A stretch of DNA of 64,000 bases from a virus, in the IMG/VR virus record IMGVR_UViG_3300037755_000850, positions 32,348 to 96,347 of that record. The stretch is one strand, 5' to 3'. This document shows, piece after piece, positions 9,602 to 54,968 of this stretch; within the stretch, counting starts at the first letter, position 1; each line of letters opens with the position of its first letter. The notes below the pieces were generated by a model. The model worked only from the letters and a program-made list of their open reading frames with translations. It did not search any database and was not told where the DNA came from. The translations under genes and the position numbers were made by a program.

Positions 9602-9676
9602 GCCGGGGTAGCTCAGTGGTAGAGCACGCGACTGAAAATTGCGGTGTCGGACGTTCAAACCGTTCCCCCGGCACCA
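9602..9676 (+). tRNA. tRNA-Phe(GAA)
   Basis: Cloverleaf; loop CTGAAAA; encoded CCA. Confidence 0.92.
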
Positions 9677-9698
9677 CGCTCTTTGACATTTTCATTTC

Positions 9699-9771
9699 TG
9701 CGGGTGGGCATAGTGCTCAGGGGGGTCTCATAAGCCTCCATTGCCGGGGGCAGTACCCGGACCCGCTACCA
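9699..9771 (+). tRNA. Atypical initiator-like tRNA-Met(CAT)
   Basis: Acceptor (T)GCGGGT/ACCCGC(T)ACCA; loop CTCATAA; T-loop GGCAGTA; short D arm. Confidence 0.65.
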
Positions 9772-9773
9772 TC

Positions 9774-10177
9774 TTGCAGTTCCCCATGAAGGTTCTGCAC
9801 TATGCGGGGGATCTGGTCCATCGCACGGGTTCCAGGTCAGATCATTAACCCTCATGCTAATGATCACCCCGCGCCCATTCCAGCTCTGTTTTGCTCATTT
9901 TCAGAGCTGGTGTACAGACGGCCCGGTGTTTCCGTGGAAGGTCATGGCGGGCCGTCTGCTTACAAGGTTCGGGCAGGAGCCTTTCGCCGTGCACGGCGAA
10001 AGGCTAGCCGCTAGTGAGGACGACAGCGCACCCTCCCTGCCCATCTAAGACCTGCTTCGGCAGGCCAGCCGGGGATAAGCTCCCGGCTGTAAGGTTTCGA
10101 GTTCTGGCGGCGGCGCAAATGCGCACAAAACTAGATGCGAGGATGTCCCGGCGATGCTAGGCCCTTCGCCGCCAGAT
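9774..10177 (+). ncRNA. Unassigned highly structured RNA inside tRNA cluster
   Basis: Eight or more consecutive GC-rich hairpins incl. C(UUCG)G loop; no convincing CDS. Confidence 0.5.
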
Positions 10178-10180
10178 GTC

Positions 10181-10255
10181 TTGGGTGTAGCTTAGTGGCT
10201 AAAGCAACGGTCTCCAAAACCGTGATCGCCGGTTCGATTCCGGTCACCCTTGCCA
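10181..10255 (+). tRNA. tRNA-Trp(CCA) with two terminal acceptor mismatches
   Basis: ACGGT-CTCCAAA-ACCGT; GGTTCGATTCC; G73-CCA. Confidence 0.85.
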
Positions 10256-10272
10256 TTCTATTAGATGATTAT

Positions 10273-10358
10273 GCGGGGTCCGCAAGGATAAGATCTACAG
10301 ACACCATGGATAGGTCTGTAGCGTAGAAGCGTCGGGGAGACCTGCCCGCCCCGCTCCA
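10273..10358 (+). ncRNA. tRNA-like element ending in UCCA
   Basis: GCGGGG/CCCCGC terminal stem + TCCA; GCAA tetraloop; 8-bp central stem; non-canonical T arm. Confidence 0.45.
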
Positions 10359-10363
10359 GTTTC

Positions 10364-10439
10364 GGATGGGTAGCTCAGTGGTCAGAGCAGCGGTCTTTTA
10401 AATCGCTGGTCGAGGGTTCGAATCCCTCCCCATCCTCCA
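10364..10439 (+). tRNA. tRNA-Lys(TTT)
   Basis: Cloverleaf; loop CTTTTAA; CCA. Confidence 0.92.
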
Positions 10440-10440
10440 A

Positions 10441-10516
10441 GGCTCTGTCGTTCAATGGTCAGGACGCCGGGTTGTCAACTCGGTAACGCTGGGTTCAATT
10501 CCCGCCAGAGCCGCCA
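10441..10516 (+). tRNA. tRNA-Asp(GTC)
   Basis: Cloverleaf; loop TTGTCAA; GCCA end. Confidence 0.88.
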
Positions 10517-10528
10517 GAGCCGCCAGAG
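10502..10528 (+). repeat. Triple tandem 9-mer CCGCCAGAG
   Basis: Exact copies at 10502, 10511 and 10520. Confidence 0.9.
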
Positions 10529-10603
10529 GGACCATCGTCTAAAGGTCAGGATACGGCTCTTTCAAAGCTGTGATGGCGAGTTCAAGTCTCCCTGGTCCCG
10601 CCA
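10528..10603 (+). tRNA. tRNA-Glu(TTC)
   Basis: Cloverleaf; loop CTTTCAA; GCCA end. Confidence 0.88.
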
Positions 10604-10627
10604 TTCCCCATAAAATGGAAAATCAAA

Positions 10628-11065
10628 ATGAAAGTTCTATTTCTCGACATTGACGGCGTTTTGAACCATGACGCAACCCAAGAAAGAATAAAGGGGCGCG
10701 GCGGACTGGTTGATGGCTTTGTTGGCATTGATCAGGCCCTGCTCAAGCGCTTCCAGACCTGGCTCAAGGATAAGGATATCAAGATCGTCCTGTCATCGAC
10801 ATGGCGAACGGATGAAGGCACCATGGCCGAGCTGAGGGCCAACGGCATCGAGTGGATTGATGTCACGCCGCGTGCTCGTCTTCGGGGTGATGAAGTTGCG
10901 CAGTGGCTCGCAGAACACGATGTCGATCGATACGCCATTATCGACGATGTTGATGAGTTCCTTTTCGATCAGATGGATTTTCTGGTTCTGACCAACCCCA
11001 GAATTGGTATCACCGATGATGATCTCAAACAGATTGACGCCATACTGGGCCTTGACGGTAAATAG
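10628..11065 (+). CDS. HAD-family phosphatase (Swiss Army Knife RNA-repair HAD type)
   Basis: FLDIDGVLN, IVLSSTWR, RG.EV..WL and YAIIDD motifs. Confidence 0.85.
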   Translation: MKVLFLDIDGVLNHDATQERIKGRGGLVDGFVGIDQALLKRFQTWLKDKDIKIVLSSTWRTDEGTMAELRANGIEWIDVTPRARLRGDEVAQWLAEHDVDRYAIIDDVDEFLFDQMDFLVLTNPRIGITDDDLKQIDAILGLDGK

Positions 11066-11154
11066 AATTTGCTCTATATCTCCTACATGAGAATTAGCAA
11101 ACTGGAAAAATGGAGGTCTCCAATGCAATAGGACAACAAATTGGAGACCTGATC

Positions 11155-11526
11155 ATGGCGCACTATAAGCGCGGTAAATGTCGTCGCAACTGCCCCAAGG
11201 CCATACGTGGCAGTCAAACCAGTTGGCGGGCGCGGTTTGGCATGAAGCCGATCCGCATTGCGTGGGGTGACATCCCGGATTTGCATCGCAGTGCTGAATG
11301 GGACGCGATGTGGCATCCCCGTGGTAGACATGGCAATCGAGGCCGGAAAATCAGCGGCCACTATTCGATGATGAGCAGCTATCCAGCCTGGTGGGATCGC
11401 ACCTTTCACACCAGACCGAGACGGGCTAAAGAAAAGGCAATGGCGCGTCGGATTCTGAAAGATGTTCTTGATCCCGACAATGCTGCATGGCCACTTCAGA
11501 AACGCCCTCATATTTACTATTGGTAA
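11155..11526 (+). CDS. Basic hypothetical protein
   Basis: RBS GGAG; Arg/Trp-rich; PAWWDRTFHTRPRR...PHIYYW. Confidence 0.65.
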   Translation: MAHYKRGKCRRNCPKAIRGSQTSWRARFGMKPIRIAWGDIPDLHRSAEWDAMWHPRGRHGNRGRKISGHYSMMSSYPAWWDRTFHTRPRRAKEKAMARRILKDVLDPDNAAWPLQKRPHIYYW

Positions 11527-11530
11527 ACCC

Positions 11531-12633: not shown

Positions 12634-12733
12634 GGAAGGGTAAGCCGAAAGATTGCTGGTTAGCGGCGGCGGTCCTGAAAACCGATGGGCTCCGAAAGGT
12701 GTCGTGGGGGTTCGAATCCCTCCCCTTCCGCCA
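12634..12733 (+). tRNA. tRNA-Ser(TGA)
   Basis: GGAAGGG/CCCTTCC-GCCA; long variable arm; loop CCTGAAA; enlarged D loop. Confidence 0.8.
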
Positions 12734-14646: not shown

Positions 14647-14881
14647 TGACGATTTGCTCCAATTGGCCAGCAAGGCGGGCCGCTTCTTCTTCCGCAGCGC
14701 GGGCGCGGGCGGCGTCAGCCTGTTCGATGGCGATGCGGTGAGCAAGCCCCTCCCGCAAGGCGGCGGCTTCCGCCCGGTATGGCGCGGCGGCATCATGTCT
14801 GATCCACGCAAGGAGCCCGACAGCAACGATGCCGATCAGAAGATAGCGCCCGATCGTGCCGGTGATGAATGACAGTATCAT
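14561..14881 (-). CDS. i-spanin (Rz-like)
   Basis: N-terminal TM, Ala-rich coiled coil, C-terminal Cys; follows the endolysin. Confidence 0.7.
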   Translation of the reverse strand: MILSFITGTIGRYLLIGIVAVGLLAWIRHDAAAPYRAEAAALREGLAHRIAIEQADAARARAAEEEAARLAGQLEQIVNEANQDNGACRFTELERQRLLTLATGNK

Positions 14882-16098
14882 CTCGCGGTATTTGCCCCCG
14901 TCTGATGATCCTCAAGTCGGGCCTGCTGAATATCGCGGAACCAGCGATAGAGGAAATACGACCCGAGAATGATGGCCAGATACCATTTATCGGCAAAGAA
15001 GCTCAAGACATCGGTGAACCCCATGGTGAGCGTCTTCAGCGTGTTGATCTCTTTCAGGATCTCACTTGCACCGATCAGCGCGTCAGCAGCCGTGCCAACC
15101 GCATAGAGCGCTGATCCTGTACCGATTGTCGCCACAGCCTTGACACCCTGATCCGCCTTTCCGACGATGCGGGAGCCGCTTTCACGCAGGTCATCAAGCG
15201 TATCATCGGCGCGCTCGCCTAGCGGCATGGGCTGAACGGTCTCGGCATTGAGAGCCGTGCGGGTCTTGGGGCCAATGATCCCATCCGTGACAAGATCGTT
15301 CTCAGCCTGGAATGTGAGCACCGCTGAACGCGTGCGGGAGCCGAAAATGCCATCAGAGCGGCCAACGGCATAGCCAAGCGCCTTCAGCCGATTCTGGAGC
15401 GCCCCGACAAGCTCACCGCGATCGCCGATCCTGAGCAGGTCGTCATCAACCTTGCCCGAGATCCCCAGCGCATCACAGGCGCGGGAATACCAGATTTGCC
15501 GATCGGCCCAGCCAATCGGATCATATTTCGACAAGGGATTGCCACGGTTGATGGCGTTGCAAACCGATTTCCATCCCCGCTCACCCATGTCACAATATTT
15601 GAGATGCTGGGAAAATTCCCAGCAGGCCGCCTTAAGTGAGATTTCAGCGTTTTCAATCAATTCCGGCTTGTTGCCAAGATCAACGCCGATTGCCTTTCCG
15701 GCCTGTTCGTAACTGTCGCGACCGGTCAGTTGAATCAGACCACCACCCCGGTATCGGTAACCATCATCGTCCTGAAGACCATTGCGTTCATTGCCCATCC
15801 GTCCGCCATAGACAGAATTGGCAAGAGCCTTGGGATTACGGGCAAAGCGTGTTGCTTCAGGACGGGTGGGCCACACCGCGCGAATGCGCGGTGCTGAATA
15901 ATTCATGTTTTCGCGGACAATCGTCAAGCCACCAGACTCGTGGCAGATCGTTGCTAGAAATGCTGCCAATCTCAATGGTGTATTAATGCCGTATTTATCG
16001 AGGTCATCTTTACCGTTGACTAACGCAGAAGCATAGTCCTCATTTGCCTTTGGCGACAAAGTTCTGATAATGTCTTTTGAAATCATGGCCAATATCAC
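14878..16098 (-). CDS. Endolysin: GH19 domain, PG-binding domain, C-terminal TM helices
   Basis: RLAAFLATICHESGG, DGYRYRGGGLIQLTGR, DGIFGSRT...FQ....L..DGIIGPKT. Confidence 0.9.
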   Translation of the reverse strand: MILAMISKDIIRTLSPKANEDYASALVNGKDDLDKYGINTPLRLAAFLATICHESGGLTIVRENMNYSAPRIRAVWPTRPEATRFARNPKALANSVYGGRMGNERNGLQDDDGYRYRGGGLIQLTGRDSYEQAGKAIGVDLGNKPELIENAEISLKAACWEFSQHLKYCDMGERGWKSVCNAINRGNPLSKYDPIGWADRQIWYSRACDALGISGKVDDDLLRIGDRGELVGALQNRLKALGYAVGRSDGIFGSRTRSAVLTFQAENDLVTDGIIGPKTRTALNAETVQPMPLGERADDTLDDLRESGSRIVGKADQGVKAVATIGTGSALYAVGTAADALIGASEILKEINTLKTLTMGFTDVLSFFADKWYLAIILGSYFLYRWFRDIQQARLEDHQTGANTAR

Positions 16099-16119
16099 CG
16101 TTTGTTCTCTAAGAACTTA

Positions 16120-16137
16120 AAGTGATTCGCGTGTCAA
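16120..16137 (-). promoter_or_regulatory. Putative late promoter with GANTC-containing 12-mer
   Basis: Minus strand TTGACA-CGCGAATCACTT upstream of the endolysin; same 12-mer at 21031 and 58598. Confidence 0.5.
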
Positions 16138-16161
16138 GAATATACTTACTTTGGCGGGCAT

Positions 16162-16187
16162 TAAAAAGCCCCTGAAAAGGGGCTGGA
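16162..16187 (-). terminator. Intrinsic terminator
   Basis: AGCCCCT-tttc-AGGGGCT plus T-run on the minus strand. Confidence 0.7.
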
Positions 16188-16209
16188 TTTGAGATTGCAT
16201 GAGTGGGCG

Positions 16210-20072: not shown

Positions 20073-20079
20073 AGCAGGA

Positions 20080-43043: not shown

Positions 43044-43058
43044 GGGTAATACCCCCTA

Positions 43059-45599: not shown

Positions 45600-45606
45600 T
45601 ACAGAC

Positions 45607-45836
45607 AATGGACGGCGGCGCTGAAAGCAGAAGCGCAGGATTAGCGAGGTCCCGAGCAATCGAGAGCGAAGGAGAGCGAGTGCAAACGGCTGGGAACCCG
45701 TCAGGATTACCTGACAAGCCTTAGAGGTCCTTGCCAACGATCTGTCGAAGCCAGTGTTCCCTGATACGGCAGTGATTGAATCCGAAAAATTGTTGGTGAA
45801 AGCACCGCAAGCGGGGGTAGCGTCCCGCCCGCCATT
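45607..45836 (+). ncRNA. tRNA-shaped ncRNA with large insert in the anticodon arm
   Basis: Terminal stem, GCGC D-like arm, GGAUU/AAUCC stem enclosing ~135 nt, GCGGG/CCCGC T-like arm. Confidence 0.5.
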
Positions 45837-45841
45837 ACATT

Positions 45842-45918
45842 GGTCCCGTAGCTCAACTGGATAGAGCGTCGGATTTCGAATCCGAAGGTTGCACGTTTGA
45901 GTCGTGCCGGGATCACCA
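45842..45918 (+). tRNA. tRNA-Arg(TCG)
   Basis: TCGGA-TTTCGAA-TCCGA; CCA. Confidence 0.88.
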
Positions 45919-45923
45919 GTTTA

Positions 45924-46030: not shown

Positions 46031-46089
46031 TCGCCTGGCCACCAAAGCTGACGTTGGACAGCACGCCTTAAAACAAGAAAGTTCTGAAA

Positions 46090-46356: not shown

Positions 46357-46568
46357 TGGAGTGGAAGAACCAGATCAGAGTCCCGCAGTCGATTAGCGAT
46401 CAGATCTGGGTTGAAGCTCGCTATGTTGGTCCTTACGGATCGCGCGCCTATGTCGAAGTCATAACGTCAGAATACTGGCGCGGCCTGCGGGCCATCAGCA
46501 GCATGTATGTTCCGGCCAGTACATTACCATGGAACAGACCAAGGAAGAAGGCGAAGGAACCGGCATGA
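46356..46568 (+). CDS. Hypothetical protein
   Basis: TGATG overlap; RBS. Confidence 0.5.
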   Translation: MEWKNQIRVPQSISDQIWVEARYVGPYGSRAYVEVITSEYWRGLRAISSMYVPASTLPWNRPRKKAKEPA

Positions 46569-46807
46569 CAAACAACCGTCTCTGGCTGGTTCACAAGCCA
46601 TCCGGCAAACATGTGCTCCTGGCCAAAAAGGGGGCAGAGTTTTGGGGTGCCTTCGGCGAAGACCACCTCAATCAGTTTTTTGATAAGCTCTATGATGAGC
46701 CGACATATAGAGGCGAGGCCCAGGACGAATTTGTCTTGTTGCAAGATCACGAGTGGGATGCCTATGAAGGCCCCCTAGACCCGTATCCAAGAAGTACGCG
46801 AGAGTAA
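46565..46807 (+). CDS. Hypothetical protein
   Basis: ATGA overlap; MTNNRLWLVHKPSGK. Confidence 0.55.
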   Translation: MTNNRLWLVHKPSGKHVLLAKKGAEFWGAFGEDHLNQFFDKLYDEPTYRGEAQDEFVLLQDHEWDAYEGPLDPYPRSTRE

Positions 46808-46817
46808 AAACGCAAAT

Positions 46818-46891
46818 TTCAGCGTCGTATAAAGGTATTACACCAGGTTGTTACCCTGAGAATCGAGGTTCGAGTCCTCGCGCTGGAGCCA
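46818..46891 (+). tRNA. tRNA-Asn(GTT)
   Basis: Loop TTGTTAC; GGTTCGAGTCC; GCCA. Confidence 0.85.
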
Positions 46892-46912
46892 ATTAGAAAG
46901 TAGGATCGTAAA

Positions 46913-47719
46913 ATGGGATGTTGGAACGGCACATGCATGGTCACCAATCTGCCAATTATGGTGGGTGATCCCGTTGTCTGTCAAGTCATCGTCGCCGCAC
47001 GCTTTGCTGATCCACTGATGGGCGCAGCCGCAACCAGCTATTCCTATGATCGCTTCGTGCCTGTTGGCTATGCTTTTCAGGCAAAATACAATGACTATGG
47101 TTATGTCGAGGATATCGAAGAAGACATCTATACCGCCGATACGCTATCTTACATCCGTGATCATCTGGTGGAGCGCGAGCAGGGTGAAAATCCCTATCAT
47201 GAGCAAGAGGTCAAAAAGGATCTTCTGACATGGAAAACCTTTGGTGAGTGGATTCACGATGGTCGTGTGCTCTTTGCCAACGCCGCCGCCAGGGCCTATC
47301 CGCAATATCCGCGTTTCCGTCCTGTTGGAATGGCCATGATCCACGAGATGGCATATGACGCAATGACCAGCCACAAGATAGGTCAAAGCTGGGGAATGGA
47401 AGACGTAATCAAGGAAGCACTTAGTATTCCAATTAATGCCATTAGAACCGAATTTACGGTCAAGGACAAGTTGTTTAATTTCACCAAAAACAGGGAAATG
47501 AACAGCCCTATTTATCTTGAAGGCGCTGATATTGATGAGATCACGCGCCGCTTAAGCAGAATGATTCATTTTGAAGGCAATCTTAATCGTTCACGCAAGC
47601 AATGGTATCCCGTATCCGGTGCCGGAAGTCAGTCCGAAGAATTTGATTTATTCAGAACTCTAGCTGTTGCCGCAGAGCATATCATGAAACAGCGTGAAAC
47701 AGAAATTGCTGAAGATTAG
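46913..47719 (+). CDS. Hypothetical phage protein
   Basis: MGCWNGTC...NLPI, YNDYG and GAGSQ motifs; 268 aa. Confidence 0.75.
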   Translation: MGCWNGTCMVTNLPIMVGDPVVCQVIVAARFADPLMGAAATSYSYDRFVPVGYAFQAKYNDYGYVEDIEEDIYTADTLSYIRDHLVEREQGENPYHEQEVKKDLLTWKTFGEWIHDGRVLFANAAARAYPQYPRFRPVGMAMIHEMAYDAMTSHKIGQSWGMEDVIKEALSIPINAIRTEFTVKDKLFNFTKNREMNSPIYLEGADIDEITRRLSRMIHFEGNLNRSRKQWYPVSGAGSQSEEFDLFRTLAVAAEHIMKQRETEIAED

Positions 47720-47902
47720 GAGTCTGGTATGAGTGAAGCCATCTTATGACTGACAAGGACGCCTATATCAGGAAACTGGAAGACGAGCGCATCGCCGCTT
47801 ATGAGCTGGCATTGACCATGATCGGCGGAGGATCTCCGAAACAGCTTCATGATCTTCTCAATCTGCTCGAATGCCGGGATCTGATGCGAGAAAGGCGAAG
47901 AA

Positions 47903-48220
47903 ATGAGTGAAGCCACAATGCTGAACCAGCTTCACGCCGAAGGCTACCGCAACATCAGGTTGCTGCCGACAGGCGAATGGGCGGCGACATTGCAGATGAA
48001 TTTCACCACAGGGTTGTTCGTTGGCCTCGATGATGAAGGTTACCGCACCAGATTCTGTTATGAAACCGAACATGACGCCAAACAGGCTTTGGAGCAATGG
48101 GACGGCAATGGATTTCCACCGGGATGGTGGGTGAAACAGAAGCCGGAAGATGTGCCGAATCCAGCGGCAATCGCAGATGTCGAAAAAATATCAGCCGCAC
48201 CACCCGAACGGGATCGGTGA
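47903..48220 (+). CDS. Hypothetical protein
   Basis: FTTGLFVGLD..GY..RFCY...A..AL..WDG...P..W. Confidence 0.65.
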   Translation: MSEATMLNQLHAEGYRNIRLLPTGEWAATLQMNFTTGLFVGLDDEGYRTRFCYETEHDAKQALEQWDGNGFPPGWWVKQKPEDVPNPAAIADVEKISAAPPERDR

Positions 48221-48371
48221 TGTGCCAAAACGTGTCCGCAGTAACCTGGTTGCCCGTCGCCGCATAAGCAAAACCTTGGTCTTCAATGGCCTGTGGTATC
48301 CCGGCGATGATCCGGAATGTCCAGTTGATGAACGGCAGCATGAGCGCATCAAGAGGCGAGAAAGGCGAAAA

Positions 48372-48549
48372 GATGACAGATGAAGATGCATTGCAGATGG
48401 AAACCATAACCTCTGAACTGATCGGATCGTTACGGCAAATCATGGAGCAAACCAATCTTCATGAAACGCATCGCCGCCGTGCTCAGGACGCCATCGATGC
48501 AGCCTTTCAGTTCAAAGAACAATGGGTCTACAAGCCGAGGAAAAGATGA
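48372..48549 (+). CDS. Small hypothetical protein
   Basis: MTDEDALQME; in operon; start approximate. Confidence 0.35.
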
Positions 48550-48700
48550 AGAAATCAAGCCGTTTCAGACTCGCCCTGCGCGAATGCCTGTACCTCAAGC
48601 GGCCATGGAAAGACCTCTGGCGGGCCTTGCTGCCGGTGCGGCGATCCACGATGTCAAAGAGCAGAAAACACTTGCAATCATCCGGCAGGAAAAACTTGTA

Positions 48701-48994
48701 ATGACAACAAAAGATCGCAGGAAGTTAAAACGTAGAATAAATTGGGCTCGAAAGCAAGCTGCGTTCGGCAACATTGTCCAAGACTGTCGCGGTCATCCCG
48801 GCAAAGTGATTACTTGCAGTGGTGGTGCTGGCTACGGCAAAGGCTATATTGATATGTATGATGACAGTTGCGAAATAAAATCGCTGTTTGATGGGTCGGT
48901 ATCTTCCTGTTCCTTGTTCAATTGTGTGCCACAAAAGCTAAGATCTGAAGAAATTGATCTGCTGCTCGCTGAGCACCGTAACCAGTCACATTGA
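48701..48994 (+). CDS. Hypothetical protein
   Basis: DCRGHP...SLFDGSVSSCSLFNC motif. Confidence 0.55.
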   Translation: MTTKDRRKLKRRINWARKQAAFGNIVQDCRGHPGKVITCSGGAGYGKGYIDMYDDSCEIKSLFDGSVSSCSLFNCVPQKLRSEEIDLLLAEHRNQSH

Positions 48995-49000
48995 GAAACC

Positions 49001-49414
49001 ATGCCCATCGAAACCAAAACCGGCGAGACCGATGCCGAAAAACGCCTGATCGCCGCCATGCTAAAAGTCGATGAGGCAATCCATTTCTATCATTCAGTCC
49101 ACGGCAATGTCAGCCGCGAATCAAGATTGTCGAGATCAAATGAAATGGAAGATATTATCAAGAAGGTCGCCCGTGACACCCTCTATTGCTCATTCTGCGG
49201 CAAGACCAATCACGAGACCCAAAGACTGATCGCTGGCCCCTCAGTCTTCATCTGCGATGAGTGCATTTTTCTATGCCTGTCGATTCTGATCAAGGAGATG
49301 GACAAGAAGATTGTCGCCAAGGAAATCAAATCCATCATTGATTTTATCCGGCAGGATGATATATCTATAGAAAATAAGCCGGATACAGGAATCGATAATG
49401 AGATTGTGGATTGA
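49001..49414 (+). CDS. ClpX C4-type zinc-finger domain protein
   Basis: LYCSFCGK......[16 protein letters not shown]. Confidence 0.85.
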
Positions 49415-49709
49415 TGACGTTCGTGAGCCGCCCGATCCGGAACGCTGGGTCTGGGCCAAGACATCCGAGGAAGCCTTGACCATCATCCGTAATGGCGGCG
49501 TCGCGTTCATCTCCTTCGATCATGATCTCGATGGTAGCGACACCACCTATCCGGTGGCTAACTATATCGAGCGCCAAGCGCAAGCTGGTGTTCAGCCCCC
49601 AGGCTGGGCGATCCATTCGCAGAACCCGGTCGGACGCGTCAATTTGCGCGCCGCGCTGGAAAGCGCTGAACGCTTCTGGCGGGATTATATAAAGAGTAGA
49701 GCGGCATGA
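49398..49709 (+). CDS. Cyclic-phosphate-processing receiver-like domain protein
   Basis: LWIDDVR.P, ISFDHDL and IHSQNPVG; coupled to rtcB. Confidence 0.8.
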
Positions 49710-52093
49710 CCAGATCTGATCCAGACAAGGAACGCGCTTACGAAATGGCCATTGCTGCCGGGATCGACCCCAACGCCAAGATCGCGCGTGAGGGGCTGAG
49801 ACCCATGCCAGCCTGGTGCACATTCCGACAGGCCGCGCGAGACGAGCGCATGGCGCGTGAGGCCAAAGCGTTTGGCGCAACCATCGCTCCGCAAGATCCA
49901 AAATACGCCGACAGCCCGCTGACCGTGCTCGGCAACCACGAATATGCCACTCTTGAGCAGATGAAGAACTGCATGGCTGTAGGTAATGTGGTCGGTGCGA
50001 CCTTGTGCGCTGATGGCCATCTTGGCTATGCCCAGCCGGTGGGCGGCGTGATCGCTTATGAAGGCCAGATCTCGATTTCTGGGGTTGGCTTTGATATTGG
50101 GTGCTTTACTGGTGATACCCGCATTTTTACCATGGATGGTCAAACGCCAACGTTGGCGGAAATTCAAGGGCAGGATGTTTACATCCTAGCATGCGAACCG
50201 GATGGAAAGCCAATTCCAGCGAAGGGAACTTGCTACAAAACACGCCGGTCGGCTGGCTTAGTTCGCGTCACCTTGGATAACGGAGAAACAATACGCTGCA
50301 CTCCTGACCACAAGTTCATGTTGCGCGATGGCTCATATCAGCGTGCCGATTGCCTTGTGCCAAACCAGCCCCTAATGCCGCTTTACATGACGGCTGATCG
50401 CGATGGTTACGTCCTCGTGCGCAACAACAACACGAAGAGACTGATGCGTCTTCACTGGATGGTCTATCGTGCTGGCATGACTGATCCGGCACCAGATCTC
50501 GATGGCGATGAGATGATCCTTCACCATAGGAACTTTATTCGATCGGACAACACTCCGTCAAACCTGCAACCTATGGGGAAAATTGCGCACGATGCCATGC
50601 ACGCCGCAATGCGCGATAGAGCGCACTTCAATACGCCAAAGTTCCATGCCAACAGGATAAGGGCAATCAAAAAATTCTGGGAAGGTGCTCGCCATGACGA
50701 CGAATTCATGGAGAAGCGACGCAGGACAGCATCGACCAACATCGTCTCCTATATGAACGAGCGCCCCGATCATTTCCGCGAGAGCATCAGTGAAAATGGG
50801 TTGCGAGGTGCGCAGCACATTACCAAGTTCAATTCTGATCCGGAGACGATCAAGCGCACATCAGAGCGGTCCAGAGTTCCACATATCTGCCCAATCTGCG
50901 GCTTTGTTGCCCGTGGGCCATCTGGATTGTCCATCCACGCACGCTTCAAACACCCAGAAGCCGCCGCAATAGCAAGAAGAGGAAAGAATTGGAAGCCTGG
51001 GTATCCATCACTTATCGAACGTCTAGCGGAAGCCGCAAACAACCATAAGGTCGTGTCTATCGAACCCATCACAGATGTTGAGGATGTCTACTGCCTCACC
51101 GTTCCAGGTCTTAATAATTTCGGGCTTGCAAGCGGTGTGTTCGTTCACAATTGTGGCAACCTGGCGGTGCGGCTTGATGTGCCGTTCAAAGCCATCGAAG
51201 ACAAGGTGCTGCCACTTGCTCGCGATATCGCCAAGACCATCTCGTTCGGCGTGGGCCGCACCAATGAAGAGCGCGCCGAGCATGACCTGTTTGACGATGA
51301 TGCAGCCTGGAAAGCCTCCGGCATGGAGGATTTTCGCGGCAAGGCGCAAAAACAGCTCGGCACTGTCGGTTCTGGGAATCACTATGTCGATCTCATGAAA
51401 GATGAAGACGGGTTCGTCTGGATCGGGGTGCATTTCGGCTCGCGCGGGCTTGGCCATACCGCTGCCACCCGCTATCTTAAACTTGCCGGTGGCAAGGATG
51501 GCATGCATGTGCCGCCAGCGGTGATTGATGATAATACCGAACTGGGTGAGCGCTATATCGCCGCCATGGAACTGGCTGGGCGCTATGCCTATGCGGGCCG
51601 GGAATGGGTGGTTGAGCGGGTCCGACAGATGATCGGCGGTAAGGTCACGGACAGCGTTCACAACCACCACAATTTCGCCTGGCGCGAGCGACATGGCGAC
51701 AAAAACCTCTGGGTAGTCCGCAAGGGCGCAACGCCAGCCTTCCCCGGCCAGCGCGGCTTTGTCGGCGGCTCGATGGGCGATGATGCCGTCATTCTCGAAG
51801 GCATCGAAAGCGAGGACAGCAAGGGCGCGCTCTATTCCACCGTTCATGGTGCGGGCCGGGTCTTTGGCCGCAAGGAAGCCAAGCGCCGATTTGGCCGGGC
51901 TGAAATGGATGACTGGATCAAGGCGCGCGGCGTTACCTTGATCGGCGGTGATCTCGATGAGAGTCCGATGGCCTATCGCCGCCTTGATGAAGTGTTGAGC
52001 TATCACCACAAGACCGCCCGTGTTCTGCACCGGCTGTCACCCTTTATCGTTGTCATGGCAGGGAGCGGAGAGAAAGATCCGTATAAAGATTGA
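49706..52093 (+). CDS. rtcB: RtcB RNA ligase with intein
   Basis: ADGHLGY, GFDIG|CG, QLGTVGSGNHY, HFGSRGLG, HNHHN, RKGATPA, HGAGR, DESPMAY. Confidence 0.93.
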   Translation: MTRSDPDKERAYEMAIAAGIDPNAKIAREGLRPMPAWCTFRQAARDERMAREAKAFGATIAPQDPKYADSPLTVLGNHEYATLEQMKNCMAVGNVVGATLCADGHLGYAQPVGGVIAYEGQISISGVGFDIGCFTGDTRIFTMDGQTPTLAEIQGQDVYILACEPDGKPIPAKGTCYKTRRSAGLVRVTLDNGETIRCTPDHKFMLRDGSYQRADCLVPNQPLMPLYMTADRDGYVLVRNNNTKRLMRLHWMVYRAGMTDPAPDLDGDEMILHHRNFIRSDNTPSNLQPMGKIAHDAMHAAMRDRAHFNTPKFHANRIRAIKKFWEGARHDDEFMEKRRRTASTNIVSYMNERPDHFRESISENGLRGAQHITKFNSDPETIKRTSERSRVPHICPICGFVARGPSGLSIHARFKHPEAAAIARRGKNWKPGYPSLIERLAEAANNHKVVSIEPITDVEDVYCLTVPGLNNFGLASGVFVHNCGNLAVRLDVPFKAIEDKVLPLARDIAKTISFGVGRTNEERAEHDLFDDDAAWKASGMEDFRGKAQKQLGTVGSGNHYVDLMKDEDGFVWIGVHFGSRGLGHTAATRYLKLAGGKDGMHVPPAVIDDNTELGERYIAAMELAGRYAYAGREWVVERVRQMIGGKVTDSVHNHHNFAWRERHGDKNLWVVRKGATPAFPGQRGFVGGSMGDDAVILEGIESEDSKGALYSTVHGAGRVFGRKEAKRRFGRAEMDDWIKARGVTLIGGDLDESPMAYRRLDEVLSYHHKTARVLHRLSPFIVVMAGSGEKDPYKD
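50102..51151 (+). mobile_element. Intein in RtcB (350 aa) with HNH endonuclease and C2H2 finger
   Basis: Starts CFTGDT; CTPDHKF; HHRNF..SDN..SNL; CPIC...H..KH; ends VFVHN before Cys. Confidence 0.9.
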
Positions 52094-52449
52094 TGTTGAA
52101 AGACAAGGAAGAACTCACCACTGAAGGCGGCTATTTTGCCCGCGTCATCAGTTTCATGCACGATCTGAAAGCCACCAATGGCAATTTCAGCGCCGTGTTC
52201 AAGATCGGCATCAATGCTGATACCCAAGATCCGGCGATCGGTATTGTCATCAATGATGGCATATCGCATCCTTTCACCATTGCTGAAGCCCGCAATATCG
52301 CCAGGATCTGCGAAGAAACCCTCACAGAGGGTGATTATGATGAAATCGAAAAAACTGTCAAAGAGCTGGTTGCCGAGATCAGGAGCATAGCAAATCTGGC
52401 GGAGAAGCGCCATGGTGAGATTCTGTCAAAGCTGATCACGACGCATTAG
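52093..52449 (+). CDS. Hypothetical protein
   Basis: Coupled to the rtcB stop codon. Confidence 0.55.
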   Translation: MLKDKEELTTEGGYFARVISFMHDLKATNGNFSAVFKIGINADTQDPAIGIVINDGISHPFTIAEARNIARICEETLTEGDYDEIEKTVKELVAEIRSIANLAEKRHGEILSKLITTH

Positions 52450-52451
52450 GA

Positions 52452-52526
52452 TGGTCCTGCTTCGCATAATCGAAATGCGCTTTCCCGGTCCACAACCGAG
52501 CGTCTTAACCACTAGACCAAAGCAGG
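52452..52526 (-). tRNA. tRNA-His(GTG), no G-1, A73
   Basis: CCUGCUU/AAGCAGG-ACCA; loop UUGUGGA. Confidence 0.85.
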
Positions 52527-52528
52527 TT

Positions 52529-52605
52529 TGGTCAGGGTGGCCGGACTCGAACCGGCGATCTTCTCATTCCAAGTGAGACGGGATGACCAACTTCCCCACA
52601 CCCTG
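52529..52605 (-). tRNA. tRNA-Pro(TGG)
   Basis: CAGGGUG/CACCCUG-ACCA; loop CUUGGAA. Confidence 0.9.
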
Positions 52606-52664
52606 ACAGGCCGAGCTTCAATGGCTCGGTCGAGGGTGCGGATGATGTGGAAGTCTGATCTGGA

Positions 52665-52710
52665 TTGACATGATTTTCTGTAGATATAACACTTTATGTT
52701 CGGTGTCAAG
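52665..52710. promoter_or_regulatory. Overlapping divergent promoter region
   Basis: TTGACA on both strands between divergent tRNA groups; -10 spacing imperfect. Confidence 0.4.
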
Positions 52711-52727
52711 CGTGGTATGAAATTAAT

Positions 52728-52819
52728 GGGCTCCCTTCCCTTCAATGGGCTGTAAACCCGTTGGCTTTGAAAACAGAAGGGTGGATGCCGGAGATGTTCG
52801 ATTCATCGGGGGCTCACCA
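52728..52819 (+). tRNA. Atypical D-armless tRNA-Tyr(GTA)-like RNA
   Basis: GGGCUCC/GGGGCUC-ACCA; loop CUGUAAA; 9-nt pyrimidine linker in place of the D arm; long variable region. Confidence 0.6.
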
Positions 52820-52835
52820 AATTGAGGTTGTAAAG

Positions 52836-53036
52836 ATGACTGACCAAGAGCTGTTCAAAAACCTCGCCACCTTCAGCATCGTGAAGCAAAAACAGATGCG
52901 GGATAAGGCTTTTGCCGCCCACGAAGCTGAGCGCAAAGACACATCTGATCAGCGGTGGCTCGATCATATAAAGAAGACCTTGATCGAGATCGTAGAAGAC
53001 GAAGTGCGCAAAAGAGAAGCAACGCAGGCACACTGA
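52836..53036 (+). CDS. Small hypothetical protein
   Basis: RBS GAGG; MTDQELFK. Confidence 0.5.
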   Translation: MTDQELFKNLATFSIVKQKQMRDKAFAAHEAERKDTSDQRWLDHIKKTLIEIVEDEVRKREATQAH

Positions 53037-53040
53037 CTAT

Positions 53041-53115
53041 TCGGGGATCGTCTAACTGGTAGGACATCAGATTTTGATTCTGACAATAGGGGTTCGAAGC
53101 CCTTTCCCCGATCCA
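53041..53115 (+). tRNA. tRNA-Gln(TTG)
   Basis: TCAGA-TTTTGAT-TCTGA; CCA. Confidence 0.88.
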
Positions 53116-53132
53116 GACAAAGGAGACCAACA

Positions 53133-53405
53133 ATGCCCCATTCAGACTTCTGGGCAGAAGACCCAACCAGAGTAGACCGGTTCATCGATATGTGGAACAA
53201 GGGGCTGACCGTTGACGAGATCGCCCGTGAGCTTGGCACCAGCCGTGGATCGATATCCGGCAAACGCCAGCGGCTTGATCTGCCGCGAAGATCAAACATC
53301 CTTGTGCAAAACTGGCGCGCAACGCCAGAGAAAATCGCCGGTGCCAAAAATCTGCGCCGTCTTGGATTGTCCCTTAATGCCATCGCTGAACGGTGTATGG
53401 GGTGA
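53133..53405 (+). CDS. GcrA-like HTH regulator (frameshifted extension to 53461)
   Basis: W....V.....MWNKGLTVDEIARELGTSRGSISGKRQRLDL; RBS AAGGAG. Confidence 0.75.
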   Translation: MPHSDFWAEDPTRVDRFIDMWNKGLTVDEIARELGTSRGSISGKRQRLDLPRRSNILVQNWRATPEKIAGAKNLRRLGLSLNAIAERCMG

Positions 53406-53461
53406 CAGCGGGAGCAATCCGGAAATGGGTGGCTAAAGACGTTGTGGAAGAGACTTCATAA

Positions 53462-53544
53462 GCGGGCGTGGCGGAAATGGTAGACGCATCGGGTTTAAGC
53501 CTCGATTCTTCGGAGTGAGAGTTCAAGTCTCTCCGCCCGCACCA
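53462..53544 (+). tRNA. tRNA-Leu(TAA)
   Basis: GGCGGAAATGGTAGACGC; loop TTTAAGC; variable arm; ACCA. Confidence 0.9.
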
Positions 53545-53553
53545 TCATTAAAT

Positions 53554-53630
53554 GCCCCTGTAGGCCAATTGGTAGAGTCACCTGATTTAGGATCAGGGTG
53601 TTGGGAGTTCAAGTCTCTCCAGGGGCACCA
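53554..53630 (+). tRNA. tRNA-Leu(TAG) with short variable loop
   Basis: CCTGA-TTTAGGA-TCAGG; ACCA. Confidence 0.82.
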
Positions 53631-54137
53631 TTATTCCAGCCACCCATCCGGTTTCTCCAGATAACAGACCTGAAGATCATTTTCATCAAAACTCATTTCC
53701 GCCACCGCATAGGGCGGGCCATTATACCAGGTGGTGTCGTGGGGTTTGTCGAGGTAGATGGCCGTTATGGTTCTGACCCCAACATCGGTAACCCGGTGCG
53801 GGAACTCGGCCCCGGAGCCCACCCAGAACTCCATGCCGATCTTCCAGTTTTCAAACGGCACCGGATAGACCGGACGATAGGCCCCGCCATAGCGGCGTCC
53901 CCAGATCCCTGCTGCATCCAGATCACGGATCAAGGCCATGATGTCATCAACACTGGGAAGATAGACCACAGCGTGGCCTTTGCGGCGGATGGTGCGAATG
54001 GCGCTGATGGCTTCGAACAGAGGCATCTTGCGGCGCATCAGCGCGCGGATGGCTTTGGTAATGCGGAGCTTGGCGCGGAAATGCTTGCGCAGGATGAACG
54101 TGTAGGAATCGCCGGGATTATGCTGGAATGGTTTCAT
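53631..54137 (-). CDS. Hypothetical protein
   Basis: DVGVRTITAI...WYNGPPYAVAE..FDE.DL motif. Confidence 0.6.
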   Translation of the reverse strand: MKPFQHNPGDSYTFILRKHFRAKLRITKAIRALMRRKMPLFEAISAIRTIRRKGHAVVYLPSVDDIMALIRDLDAAGIWGRRYGGAYRPVYPVPFENWKIGMEFWVGSGAEFPHRVTDVGVRTITAIYLDKPHDTTWYNGPPYAVAEMSFDENDLQVCYLEKPDGWLE

Positions 54138-54373
54138 GAGTGATTCCAACGGGCATTAGCGGCAGCTTTGGCGATTTCGGTTCGGCGCTCAGGAGTCAAC
54201 GCATTGGCCCGCGCGATGCCGCCCCTGTGTTGCTTTGATGACTGCTTGTCCTTGTCATCACCACCAAGCTCTGCGACACGCATCTTGATGATCGCCCATT
54301 GCTCGAATGTCGGCCTATCGGTGATGGCCTCAGAGAAACCTGCAAACCAGATCTTAAACCGTGCTGGCGTCAT
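54134..54373 (-). CDS. Small protein with basic GG.ARA..LTPERR.EIA..AA.ARW motif
   Basis: Recognisable basic nucleic-acid-binding-like motif. Confidence 0.6.
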   Translation of the reverse strand: MTPARFKIWFAGFSEAITDRPTFEQWAIIKMRVAELGGDDKDKQSSKQHRGGIARANALTPERRTEIAKAAANARWNHS

Positions 54374-54635
54374 TGTATTCTGCCCTCATGACTTCACGGA
54401 TCTCCTGCATCGGCGGACCTTCATGCTTTCTCCGCTTGTTGCAGCACCAGCGGCTGCAATGCGCAAGATTATCCGCAAGGCGTTCACAATCTTTCATCCA
54501 GCGAAGCCGATCGTCATTCGATTTCCAGAAATCAATCGGCGTCTCGTGAAATTTCGTGAAGATCCGCCGTGCCTTGGCCTTCATGCGCTGCTTGTCGCGG
54601 ATGCGGCGAGCGCGAGATGGTTCTGGGTAGTTCAC
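54354..54635 (-). CDS. Basic Cys-motif hypothetical protein
   Basis: SRARR...LADNLAHCS..CCN.RR...PMQE. Confidence 0.6.
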   Translation of the reverse strand: MNYPEPSRARRIRDKQRMKAKARRIFTKFHETPIDFWKSNDDRLRWMKDCERLADNLAHCSRWCCNKRRKHEGPPMQEIREVMRAEYNDASTV

Positions 54636-54636
54636 C

Positions 54637-54876
54637 TTACTGCTCCCGGTTGCCTTCTTTCAACAGCATGGCGATGAACTCATCCTCGCTGATGCCTTCA
54701 GCCGCCATGAACGCGCGAACCTGATCACTAAGCACAACTTCGCCGCCATTGAGCATGAGTGATGCCAGCTGTTCCGGATCACCCTCGCGGATCTCGCCTG
54801 CATCGATCGCTTCCTTAACATCGATATCGCCGAATTCCTGTTCTTCTTCTGGCGTTGAGGGTCTGACTTTTACCAT
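54637..54876 (-). CDS. Acidic hypothetical protein
   Basis: ATG with RBS; in operon. Confidence 0.5.
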   Translation of the reverse strand: MVKVRPSTPEEEQEFGDIDVKEAIDAGEIREGDPEQLASLMLNGGEVVLSDQVRAFMAAEGISEDEFIAMLLKEGNREQ

Positions 54877-54893
54877 GATGCACCCTTAAAGAT

Positions 54894-54968
54894 TGGAGAC
54901 GGCGGCAGGGCTCAAACCTGCATGTTCCGGATTTGCAGTCCAGCGCGATGTCAACTGAGCAGTGAGTC
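54894..54968 (-). pseudogene. Degenerate tRNA-Cys(GCA) overlapping the scaffold gene 3' end
   Basis: Intact CUGGA-CUGCAAA-UCCGG, T arm and U73-CCA; only 3 of 7 acceptor pairs form. Confidence 0.65.

Follow-up and report, generated by a model that had tools for sequence, protein, structure and literature searches.

Phages are already known to combine replacement tRNAs with an RtcB/cREC/HAD repair set (PMC7824862). T5 provides tRNAs that escape host defence, its tRNA-Tyr evading retron-Eco7 and Septu PtuAB and its tRNA-Lys evading PARIS, where the part of tRNA-Tyr ‘read’ by the nuclease is the variable loop (PMC11555353, PMC13096335, PMC11464382). Unusual tRNA shapes also have precedents: alphaproteobacterial phages carry (8/4) tRNA-Ser and tRNA-His within their tRNA clusters (Mukai et al., NAR 2017, PMC5389517), and D-armless mitochondrial tRNA-Ser(AGY), tRNA-Pyl and type II mitochondrial tRNAs are functional adaptors (reviewed in PMC7609411). 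One phage tRNA-like RNA, the CDS-less tmRNA of mycobacteriophage DS6A, is reported to inhibit a host system (PMC11915505).

Here, we consider an alphaproteobacterium phage with a 96-kb genome, which carries 12 canonical tRNA genes, an RtcB module and several odd-shaped, conserved tRNA genes; ‘the window’ denotes the whole stretch of 64,000 nucleotides that was analysed. An earlier note on this DNA had proposed replacement tRNAs, repair, and a third layer of non-translating tRNA mimics that titrate nucleases or synthetases. Replacement tRNAs and RtcB repair are already known in phages; what is unusual here is the non-canonical tRNA architecture. Judging from sequence, we think it probable that the elements with initiator-Met, Tyr and Ser character, despite their unusual build, serve as true adaptors and not as decoys, and that the repair module is a separate matter.

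Canonical tRNAs and RNA-repair genes

The canonical tRNAs lie in clusters and were found both by ARAGORN and by Rfam (48.8-73.8 bits), their number agreeing with the dozen or so near-canonical tRNAs counted previously:

9602..9676, + strand: tRNA-Phe(GAA), with TTGACA-17-TAAATT upstream
10181..10255, + strand: tRNA-Trp(CCA)
10364..10603, + strand: tRNA-Lys(UUU), tRNA-Asp(GUC), tRNA-Glu(UUC)
45842..45918, + strand: tRNA-Arg(UCG)
46818..46891, + strand: tRNA-Asn(GUU)
52452..52605, - strand: tRNA-His(GUG), tRNA-Pro(UGG)
53041..53630, + strand: tRNA-Gln(UUG), a GcrA-like gene (53133-53405), tRNA-Leu(UAA), tRNA-Leu(UAG)

The genes associated with repair, or put forward as such in the earlier note, are:

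1936..2796, + strand: metallophosphoesterase (PF00149, E 6e-11), the sole one in the genome, with its PF00149 assignment at 1993-2664
10628..11065, + strand: HAD_SAK_2 phosphatase (E 7.5e-26; 333 homologues, 333/333 PF18143)
49398..49709, + strand: cREC_REC (cyclic-phosphate-processing receiver domain) gene (E 1.9e-24)
49706..52093, + strand: RtcB RNA ligase, 795 aa, intein-interrupted (PF01139, E 1.8e-60)

The earlier note had placed RtcB next to a receiver-like gene, and this is borne out, with the 3' end of the cREC_REC gene overlapping the start of rtcB. The ligase consists of an N-extein ending in ..FDIGC (about residue 133), an intein (about 134-482) and a C-extein that contains the motifs GSGNH, HfGSRGLGH, HHN and HGAGR. 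Equally, the HAD phosphatase does sit directly 3' of the first tRNA cluster, 25 nt past tRNA-Glu, and its HAD domain is the one found in ‘Swiss Army Knife’ RNA-repair proteins. The metallophosphoesterase is present, but falls outside the span of 9602-54968 to which it had been assigned, about 7 kb from any tRNA. Both parts of ‘replace plus repair’, a phage tRNA set and an RtcB/cREC/HAD module, are encoded; we suggest that they represent two separate, individually ordinary counter-measures to tRNA damage, one being the phage's own tRNAs and the other the healing and sealing of ends by RtcB, cREC and HAD.

Conserved elements with initiator, tyrosine and serine identities

The non-canonical elements (m1 to m5, plus one Ser-like tRNA) are as follows:

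9699..9771, + strand: m1, initiator-like tRNA(CAU), a conserved RNA class with strong covariation
10273..10358, + strand: m2, tRNA-shaped RNA with a 7-bp acceptor, U73 and CCA; a singleton
12634..12733, + strand: Ser(UGA)-like non-canonical tRNA with an oversized D loop, 7/5 branch, G73 and CCA
45604..45841, + strand: m4, 238-nt promoter-proximal leader, from a TTGACA-17-TATATG promoter-like site to tRNA-Arg
52728..52819, + strand: m3, 8/4 tRNA-Tyr(GUA), D stem re-wired; member of a conserved, covarying class
54890..54975, - strand: m5, decayed tRNA-Cys(GCA), its anticodon arm near-identical to that of a relative's tRNA-Cys

The Ser(UGA)-like tRNA is a sixth element, absent from the earlier list of five mimics; of those five, ARAGORN called none (0/5), relaxed settings included, and none (0/5) reached the Rfam tRNA threshold.

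The RNA at 9699 is real and belongs to a conserved class, but it keeps an initiator identity set, which speaks against a non-translating mimic. Its acceptor joins a U1xU72 mismatch to G2-C71, C3-G70, A73 and an encoded CCA, and CUCAUAA forms its anticodon loop; the D arm consists of a mini-hairpin of 5 bp with a UAG triloop, lacking G18G19, and the T arm (CCGGG-GGCAGUA-CCCGG, 17 nt) matches the Rfam alpha_tmRNA consensus (RF01849) exactly. All 10 members of the class (8 parsed, plus 2 further in metagenomes) come from phage or metagenome DNA, and 87 of 88 cognate stem positions are paired; exchanging strands among members lowers the pairing to 57.6%. Every CAU member has G2-C71, C3-G70 and G4-C69; at 1:72 the class shows a weak pair or a mismatch, with the textbook C1xA72 and A73 in two metagenome members, and most anticodon stems have two, not three, consecutive loop-adjacent G-C pairs. 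A 42-tRNA array has two further CAU tRNAs besides its m1-class element, which alone of the three has an initiator acceptor. The same T arm is found elsewhere with other coherent identity sets, namely UGC with G3:U70 and A73 (Ala), and GCA with U73 (Cys). We suggest that m1 would be an initiator-type tRNA(Met) with its elbow exchanged for the alphaproteobacterial tmRNA kind; that is, a D mini-hairpin without G18G19 together with a GGCAGUA T loop without T-Psi-C.

Such an elbow could also be taken to mean that the m1 class, with its Ala, Cys and Ile cousins, serves in trans-translation or some other elbow-reading role and not as adaptors; the invariant 17-nt T arm might then bind SmpB, RNase P or a phage factor. 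The match to the alpha_tmRNA consensus is exact, every bacterial match to the T-arm pattern (120/120) is a tmRNA, and the DS6A tmRNA offers a precedent (PMC11915505); m1, however, has C3-G70 in place of G3:U70, the alanine identity of tmRNA. Strict conservation of the arm across unrelated phages, stem included, suggests sequence-specific recognition, but stem identity was imposed by the design of the exact-match search, and G[GU]CAG[UC]A T loops on other stems belong to Gly, Asp and Val tRNAs of two large phage arrays (G013 and G014) that Rfam still recognises, so this loop fits ordinary tRNA bodies. Absence of T54-Psi55-C56 makes an SmpB-related or other non-decoding role conceivable, but the anticodon arm of m1 is complete and the phage does not encode SmpB; an ARAGORN search of its genome found no tmRNA. 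On balance, we regard a role of this kind as improbable, and continue to read m1 as an initiator-type adaptor.

The RNA at 52728 is likewise real, conserved and covarying, but the Tyr identity set that it keeps speaks against a non-translating mimic. It has an 8-bp acceptor with A73 and CCA, a 4-bp T stem with the loop UUCGAUU, a 6-bp anticodon stem with the loop CUGUAAA, and a 6-bp stem (CCCUUC/GAAGGG) with its 3' strand placed after the anticodon arm; a TTGACA-17-TATAAC site of its own is present, and the best-matching Rfam model is tRNA-Sec. The 7 members of the class, from 7 viral contigs, share an invariant GGC, UGGAUGCC, CUGUAAA, G1-C72 and A73. Across 24 pairs, 95.2% are paired (42-55% with partners slid), compensatory changes on both sides are seen in 16, and the covariation score was reached by 0 of 500 shuffles. 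No match in 151 alphaproteobacterial genomes exceeded 37 bits, and class members score 91-101 bits. In three large arrays (G001, with 27 tRNAs, G013 and G014) the element is present and a canonical Tyr is missing; the complete 176-kb phage G013, which also has a UCU (Arg) copy of the re-wired D-arm fold, covers 19 amino acids normally and Tyr solely by an m3-type element, although these counts rely on ARAGORN and Rfam calls, blind by construction to odd tRNAs, such that a second odd Tyr may hide.

We propose that m3 acts as the tRNA-Tyr of the phage, with acceptor and T stem together forming a 12-bp branch. EF-Tu reads the 12-bp acceptor/T branch. In its fold, the anticodon stem begins right where the 5' strand of the D stem ends, while the 3' strand of the D stem follows the anticodon arm; with this arrangement, stacking of the two stems should, on geometric reasoning, still be possible. 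The D loop and variable arm are replaced by a single 11-13-nt strand plus the connector UGGAUGCC.

The element at 12634-12733 we would read as a tRNA-Ser with an enlarged D loop. The D loop of its class spans 17-18 nt and contains an invariant 15-nt motif, GUAAGCCGAAAGAUU, in at least 10 contigs. Position 33 is C in the window copy versus U in all relatives, and the window copy may be impaired.

Adaptors, decoys or decaying genes

Not all of the listed mimics withstood scrutiny, and some resemble what would be expected were the aberrant RNAs simply dying, functionless tRNA genes. The putative mimic at 54894 (m5) is a tRNA-Cys remnant, probably dead: it keeps the T arm GCAGG-UUUGAGC-CCUGC, followed by CGCCGUC-U-CCA, but the end of a 442-aa ORF, with its stop codon in the former D loop, has taken the place of the 5' acceptor strand. 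The tRNA shape proposed for the RNA at 45607 (m4) finds no clear support: its minimum-energy fold has a tRNA-like four-way layout but does not stand out from shuffled sequence (z -0.98), and no homologue was found in the one related phage. The lack of any m2 homologue in our searches and the C33 of the Ser copy point the same way. Compensatory changes in 7 to 10 independent phage lineages, however, exclude decay for m1 and m3, and the Ser class keeps its D-loop motif; for these three, decay was rejected on covariation. The earlier note had treated a lack of covariation as telling against its proposal, but m1 and m3 do covary (87/88 stem positions; 16/24 pairs), and, being conserved and covarying, are not junk. 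As a general account, decay seems to us a poor prospect.

A second possibility is the mimic layer itself, in which the aberrant RNAs do not translate but absorb anticodon or variable-arm nucleases, or synthetases, whilst RtcB reseals cut tRNAs. In its favour is m2, the RNA at 10273, for which the proposed tRNA shape holds, though no homologue was found. The acceptor set is Gly-like (G1-C72, C2-G71, G3-C70, U73, CCA), with a mini D hairpin capped by GCAA and an odd T arm; an 8-bp stem has an 11-nt loop holding the palindrome CCAUGG, and the normal anticodon loop is missing. Because it has no usable anticodon loop, m2 may be a true non-decoding look-alike, in which case the cluster would contain one or more of these. 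The DS6A tmRNA (PMC11915505) also lends the idea some plausibility. In the aberrant RNAs, precisely those parts that a nuclease would read (anticodon loop, acceptor end) are kept while the core has changed, which favours a decoy, but charging identity elements are conserved alongside the anticodon, for which a pure nuclease sponge has no need, and in near-complete arrays these elements fill the one missing isoacceptor. Remodelling of the variable arm, moreover, removes the known PtuAB cut site instead of presenting one. Neither did the supposed co-occurrence with rtcB materialise: RtcB is missing from other phages that carry odd tRNAs, among them ones with completeness ratings of 91% and 100%, and 80 RtcB loci (1.3 Mb) contained no Tyr-class element and only one variant-T-loop tRNA, such that the odd tRNAs are independent of rtcB. 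We therefore think a decoy layer unlikely.

Genuine adaptors remain our preferred reading, since m1 and m3 resemble working tRNAs in keeping coherent identity elements and in filling isoacceptor gaps in large phage arrays. Charging would be by host TyrRS for m3, SerRS for the Ser element, and MetRS with the formylase for m1. We suggest that, with their D, variable and T regions altered, the odd tRNAs would be cut poorly by host nucleases that recognise these regions; one such nuclease is PtuAB/Septu, whose cut falls in the variable arm of tRNA-Tyr.

Comparison with known systems

The repair genes resemble the RtcB-cREC-HAD phage sets of Burroughs and Aravind (2016), so far as these are recounted in PMC7824862, in having the same RtcB, cREC and HAD_SAK_2 in a tRNA-rich phage; unlike the sets recounted there, the RtcB here has an intein and the HAD gene lies 39 kb from rtcB. 

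With the alphaproteobacterial two-piece tmRNA (RF01849), m1 shares the 17-nt T-arm consensus and the want of a G18G19 D loop, but in contrast to that RNA and to the CDS-less tmRNA of DS6A (PMC11915505) it has a CAU anticodon arm, C3-G70 and not G3:U70, and neither tag frame nor permuted layout. With bacterial initiator tRNA(fMet) it has in common the CUCAUAA loop, G2-C71, C3-G70, A73, a weak or mismatched 1:72 pair and loop-adjacent G-C pairs; it differs in its non-canonical D arm and T loop and, in the window copy, by UxU at 1:72, and most members have just two G-C pairs in a row.

Mitochondrial tRNA-Ser(AGY), tRNA-Pyl and type II mitochondrial tRNAs lack the D arm, or G18G19 and T-Psi-C, yet translate (PMC7609411); these are organellar or part of a dedicated orthogonal system whose partner proteins are adapted, whereas the phage elements would need the ordinary bacterial apparatus. 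The T5 escape tRNAs keep the canonical cloverleaf and differ from it locally, whereas m3 has a changed architecture, and for the host of m3 no nuclease is known; the logic is the same, in that the phage supplies its own version of a targeted isoacceptor, changed in the nuclease-read part. Finally, m3 shares with the (8/4) tRNAs and allo-tRNAs (PMC5389517) an 8/4 12-bp branch, a 6-bp anticodon stem, a long variable region and carriage by alphaproteobacterial phages; those phage tRNAs are Ser and His and m3 is Tyr, and where the 6-bp D stem of allo-tRNAs is contiguous and capped with a tetraloop, the D-stem strands of m3 are split by the whole anticodon arm.

Canonical tRNAs, repair genes and host

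The tRNA-replacement and RNA-repair layers proposed in the earlier note are largely borne out by database comparison. The same 12 canonical tRNAs, grouped in three clusters, are recognised by both ARAGORN and Rfam; Pfam places RtcB (PF01139; 205.8 bits, above cut-off) at 49706-52093, with the receiver-like gene to which it is coupled (cREC_REC, PF20274; 86.5 bits, cut-off 27) overlapping its start, and a HAD phosphatase (HAD_SAK_2, PF18143; 91.6 bits, cut-off 27.5) directly after the first tRNA cluster, 25 nt past tRNA-Glu. The metallophosphoesterase counted with them is present, but its sole copy, at 1993-2664, lies outside the span over which the system had been drawn. RtcB owes its length of 795 aa to an intein of ~350 aa, sitting directly after the DIGC metal-binding motif; this and the motifs GSGNH, HfGSRGLGH, HHN and HGAGR align to RtcB of P. 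horikoshii, all but DIGC falling in the C-extein. Metal-binding and GMP-histidine motifs are both present, and the ligase would be active once the intein is spliced out. Neither a CCA-adding enzyme nor a phage-encoded SmpB was found in the phage. Since phage tRNAs together with RtcB-type ligases are a combination already described (PMC7824862), and the inventory is confirmed here, the replacement and repair layers are real, previously known and textbook.

Across 80 RtcB loci, tblastn gave no match to the cREC gene, the ClpX-Zn-finger gene or the neighbouring ORFs, and a single match to the HAD gene, such that this RtcB neighbourhood was not encountered elsewhere in these searches. A HAD homologue, P0002, is 88% identical; no relatives of the phage were reached through the HAD protein in viral and metagenome contigs.

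The record is that of a 96,347-bp virus with direct terminal repeats, its bases 32348-96347 coding for a portal, a major head protein, an endolysin and a very long ORF, along with the following features:

21026-32644 (-), ORF of 3872 aa
43235-43482 (-), group I intron, matched in Rfam with 73.6 bits; lies at the 3' end of the ORF for the major head protein (43399-44631)
53133-53405 (+), gene for a GcrA-like HTH protein (PF07750, E 3.8e-8), between tRNA-Gln and two tRNA-Leu genes

The capsid gene appears to be split. Length is the sole ground for guessing that the 3872-aa ORF could encode an N4-type virion RNA polymerase. No close relative was found among GenBank phages (megablast of 45400-55100 gave no match), and a distant blastn search of 9000-11200 matched only canonical tRNAs; the single relative in IMG/VR is a 102-kb phage, G001, with a portal protein 68% identical. 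The GcrA-like gene, taken with the Alphaproteobacteria-specific, tmRNA-type T arm of the RNA m1 described below, points to a probable alphaproteobacterial host.

Two conserved classes of probable non-canonical tRNA

The earlier note had also listed five aberrant tRNA-like RNAs (m1 to m5), to which we add a sixth:

9699-9771, m1, with an initiator-like CAU anticodon
10273-10358, m2, with a Gly-like acceptor
52728-52819, m3, with a Tyr anticodon
45604-45841, m4
54890-54975 (-), m5
12634-12733 (+), Ser-like element

With a canonical tRNA defined by the Rfam RF00005 gathering score (29 bits) or by an ARAGORN call, there is no tRNA match to m1, m2, m3, m4 or the Ser-like element by either route; m5 scores 19.7 bits to tRNA, under threshold, and the one match of m3 is to tRNA-Sec, at 21.7 bits. 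Allowing introns and lowered thresholds in ARAGORN yielded 121 calls that amount to noise, none of them on the five listed RNAs. Thermodynamic z-scores for single elements (-0.7 to -1.4; +1.4 for m5) are uninformative for RNAs so short. The known exceptions to the usual tRNA build comprise tRNA-Sec and tRNA-Pyl as well as the allo-tRNAs of 8/4 and 9/3 type. A Ro60/Y RNA (YrlA) module was considered separately and rejected: a TROVE protein match is absent, and the YrlA match overlaps tRNA-Phe and, at 19.6 bits, falls far short of its cut-off (69).

The structure of m3 is defined by comparison. Its homologue in G001 sits 3 nt upstream of tRNA-Val, and a motif search returned at least five more in unrelated viral contigs; in the resulting seven-sequence alignment 95.2% of the pairs in a structure of four helices form, a figure that drops to 42-55% once the partners are slid, with changes on both sides in 16 of 24 pairs and a covariation score reached by none of 500 shuffles.

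Helices of m3
Helix 1: acceptor, 8 bp; compensatory changes in 7 of 8 pairs
Helix 2: D stem, 6 bp; 5' strand at the usual start of the D arm, 3' strand past the anticodon arm
Helix 3: anticodon stem, 6 bp; loop CUGUAAA (7 nt, U33)
Helix 4: T stem, 4 bp; canonical loop UUCGAUU

The strands of the D stem (alignment columns 12-17 and 50-55) therefore enclose the anticodon arm, and there is no contiguous D arm; as read from the alignment, most members are unable to make the fifth T-stem pair of a 7/5 layout. As in a canonical tRNA, the ends of m3 are closed by the acceptor stem, with a discriminator and CCA, and its 7-nt anticodon loop contains U33. Throughout the class, G1-C72 and A73 do not vary, nor do a GGC triplet and UGGAUGCC; the marks of bacterial (class II) tRNA-Tyr, namely a long variable region as well as GUA, A73 and G1-C72, are shared by 7/7 members. 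A TTGACA-17-TATAAC site precedes m3; this and a TTGACA-17-TATATG site were read by eye, the promoter scanner listing neither because both lack the T that it demands at the end of the -10 box.

The class appears to fill a gap. Canonical tRNA-Tyr is missing from G001 (27 tRNAs) and from two other phages with large tRNA arrays, G013 (complete, 176 kb; otherwise covering 19 amino acids) and G014 (27 tRNAs), and in all three an m3-type element is the sole RNA with a Tyr anticodon. A covariance model of the class scores its members at 91-101 bits and nothing above 37 bits in 151 alphaproteobacterial genomes. G013 holds a second gene of the re-wired D-stem 8/4 fold (L410:14108-14196 (-)), with a UCU (Arg) anticodon and G73, that scores 44 bits to the Tyr-class model. 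From these features we conclude that m3 is probably the phage's tRNA-Tyr in a non-canonical architecture, one that would be aminoacylated by TyrRS.

The second class, that of m1, departs from the canonical form at the elbow. The m1 cloverleaf has an end-closing 6-bp acceptor (G2-U7) beneath U1xU72, A73 and CCA; a D arm that is a 5-bp hairpin capped by a triloop; the anticodon loop CUCAUAA (7 nt, U33); and the T arm CCGGG-GGCAGUA-CCCGG, with no partners for G18G19/T54-Psi55-C56 pairing. The T arm matches the alphaproteobacterial tmRNA (RF01849) consensus CCGGGGGC(g/a)GUACCCGG, but m1 has C3-G70 rather than the alanine-identity G3:U70, and lacks a tag frame and the permuted two-piece layout; ARAGORN called no tmRNA in the genome, nor did Rfam match one in the window. 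The 17-nt arm occurs in at least 119 viral stretches, most of them permuted tmRNAs and a minority tRNA-shaped genes within phage tRNA arrays (anticodons CAU, UAU, GCA, CUC, GGU and UGC). Among the matches listed to a pattern combining the CAU loop and the T arm, the tRNA form occurs in viral and metagenome DNA only, and 120/120 bacterial matches are tmRNA.

As MAFFT alignments mis-register the 5' strands, this class was analysed by a per-sequence structural parse. In eight of its members the acceptor and anticodon stems are paired at 87 of 88 positions (57.6% with strands swapped between members), with compensatory changes at 3:70, 5:68, 7:66 and in the anticodon stem. Members with CAU keep G2-C71, C3-G70 and G4-C69, with 1:72 weak or mismatched. 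A mismatched 1:72, G2-C71, C3-G70 and A73 are the determinants of the formylase, and C1xA72 with A73 is the hallmark of bacterial initiator tRNA, a combination carried by two metagenome members (L493 and L494). The window copy shares with tRNA(fMet) the CAU anticodon, a mismatched 1:72 (here UxU), the G-C and C-G pairs that follow, and A73; of the three consecutive G-C pairs at the base of the tRNA(fMet) anticodon stem, G30-C40 is found in all CAU members, but mostly there are two consecutive pairs. In an array of 42 tRNAs, two further CAU genes accompany the m1-type element, which alone has an initiator-type acceptor. We conclude that m1 is, as far as its sequence can tell, an initiator-type tRNA with an alternative elbow, which MetRS may charge and which may undergo formylation and act in the P site.

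Further odd RNAs and their relation to rtcB

Variant T loops of the form G[GU]CAG[UC]A also occur on other stems, with GG-less D loops, in tRNAs of G013 and G014 that Rfam scores as tRNA and ARAGORN misses; Ala-like genes with the tmRNA-type arm lie inside other phage tRNA arrays:

L410 (G013 165287-165357), tRNA-Gly(UCC), T loop GGCAGUA
L410 (G013 168929-168999), tRNA-Asp(GUC), T loop GGCAGCA
L413 (G014 14659-14729), tRNA-Val(UAC), T loop GUCAGUA
L021:11818-11893, tRNA-Ala(UGC)-like gene
L153 ~4030-4110 (-), tRNA-Ala(UGC)-like gene

In both Ala-like genes, G3:U70 and A73 go with a mini D hairpin (GCAG-AAGG-CUGC) and the alphaproteobacterial tmRNA T arm. The unannotated Ser-like element, exposed by a covariance search and by comparison of this phage with G001, has UGA, G73 and CCA. 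Its T arm is canonical, and its D loop, of 17-18 nt, carries the invariant motif GUAAGCCGAAAGAUU; the 15-nt core of this loop is identical in G001 and at least seven other viral contigs (leaving out L443 and L488, of the same sequence as L431). C33 is found in the window copy alone, its relatives having U33.

Of the five listed RNAs, m1 and m3 are conserved and covarying, the lack of which had been among the grounds set for rejecting the earlier proposal. For m4, a tRNA-like layout can be drawn, but its fold is no better than shuffles, and it has no counterpart in G001. The RNA m5 aligns to tRNA-Cys of G001 over a stretch that begins with the D arm and runs through to CCA, lacks the 5' acceptor strand and contains the stop codon of the upstream ORF, the matching place in G001 being taken by a Thr-Met-Thr-Thr cluster; it is, to judge by this alignment, a tRNA remnant. 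Finally, m2 combines a Gly-like acceptor set and CCA with an 8-bp stem and an 11-nt loop in place of a 7-nt anticodon loop; no homologue was found and, with no matches to its T-arm pattern, it remains a singleton. It is for m2 above all that a decoy role is possible, in which the RNAs bind, or are cut by, a defence nuclease and are unused in translation.

The decoy idea as proposed is not supported, nor is the coupling of such mimics to rtcB. G001 has no RtcB, and neither do seven of the other eight searched records with variant-T-arm tRNAs (four m1-class), three of the RtcB-less records being rated 100% complete. Conversely, 80 IMG/VR RtcB loci (1.32 Mb) hold no m3-type element and one variant-T-loop tRNA, the Ala(UGC) gene of L021, ~1.1 kb downstream of RtcB. 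The odd tRNAs go with tRNA arrays, not with rtcB.

Several other non-coding stretches were observed. At 9774-10177 (+), between m1 and tRNA-Trp, lie ~400 nt of dense hairpins with short ORFs only. Some 16 kb ahead of the window start, genome positions 15732-16200 hold a promoter-driven non-coding unit of two circularly permuted tRNA-like modules, each comprising a T arm, 3' acceptor strand, U, CCA, 8-11-nt linker, 5' acceptor strand and D arm; read directly, both T arms are followed by 7 nt, U and CCA. In G001, tRNA-cluster spacers at 20718-20800 (-) and 60048-60160 (+) form long CCA-ending hairpins (e.g. 13 bp, then CCA), which may be processing signals or minihelix RNAs.

Proposed remodelled replacement tRNAs and known systems

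Taking conservation, covariation, coherent identity elements and gap-filling together, the best reading of the odd tRNAs is as replacement tRNAs with remodelled bodies. The classes are conserved, covarying and phage-only, their connectivity altered or their elbow of tmRNA type, and each appears to make good the lack of a single isoacceptor. Their charging, ribosomal use and selective reason are inferred from sequence. For m3, one candidate reason is suggested by PtuAB of Septu and retron-Eco7, which cleaves tRNA-Tyr in the variable loop, the tRNA-Tyr of T5 escaping through a distinctive variable loop (PMC13096335, PMC11555353); m3, without a conventional variable arm, might escape PtuAB-like cutting. 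VapC-type toxins cut tRNA-fMet, according to a reference listed in PMC7824862; nothing found here links m1 to them.

We also put forward, as a speculation that we consider rather doubtful, that phages of alphaproteobacteria and other bacteria keep whole classes of translationally active tRNAs of alternative architecture, selected because they go unseen by those host defence nucleases (PtuAB/Septu-like, VapC-like) whose recognition relies on the variable arm, D loop or elbow, yet remain usable by synthetases, by EF-Tu or IF2 and by the ribosome. These classes would include the 8/4 tRNA-Tyr with its D stem threaded round the anticodon arm, the initiator whose elbow is of tmRNA type, and related forms for Ala, Cys, Ile, Arg, Gly, Asp and Val. 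If the odd tRNAs described here are charged and used, they would imply a wider tolerance of the bacterial ribosome, EF-Tu, RNase P and synthetases, provide natural scaffolds for orthogonal tRNAs, point to a structural escape route from tRNA-cleaving defences, and mean that standard annotation under-counts phage tRNAs.

Among the known architectures closest to that of m3 is the (8/4) allo-type tRNA. Alphaproteobacterial phages are reported to have tRNA-Ser and tRNA-His of this kind (PMC5389517), with no split D stem described there. The contiguous long D stem with a tetraloop belongs to those tRNAs and not to m3; common to both are the 8-bp acceptor and 4-bp T stem, a division that, in m3, preserves the 12-bp branch of normal tRNAs.
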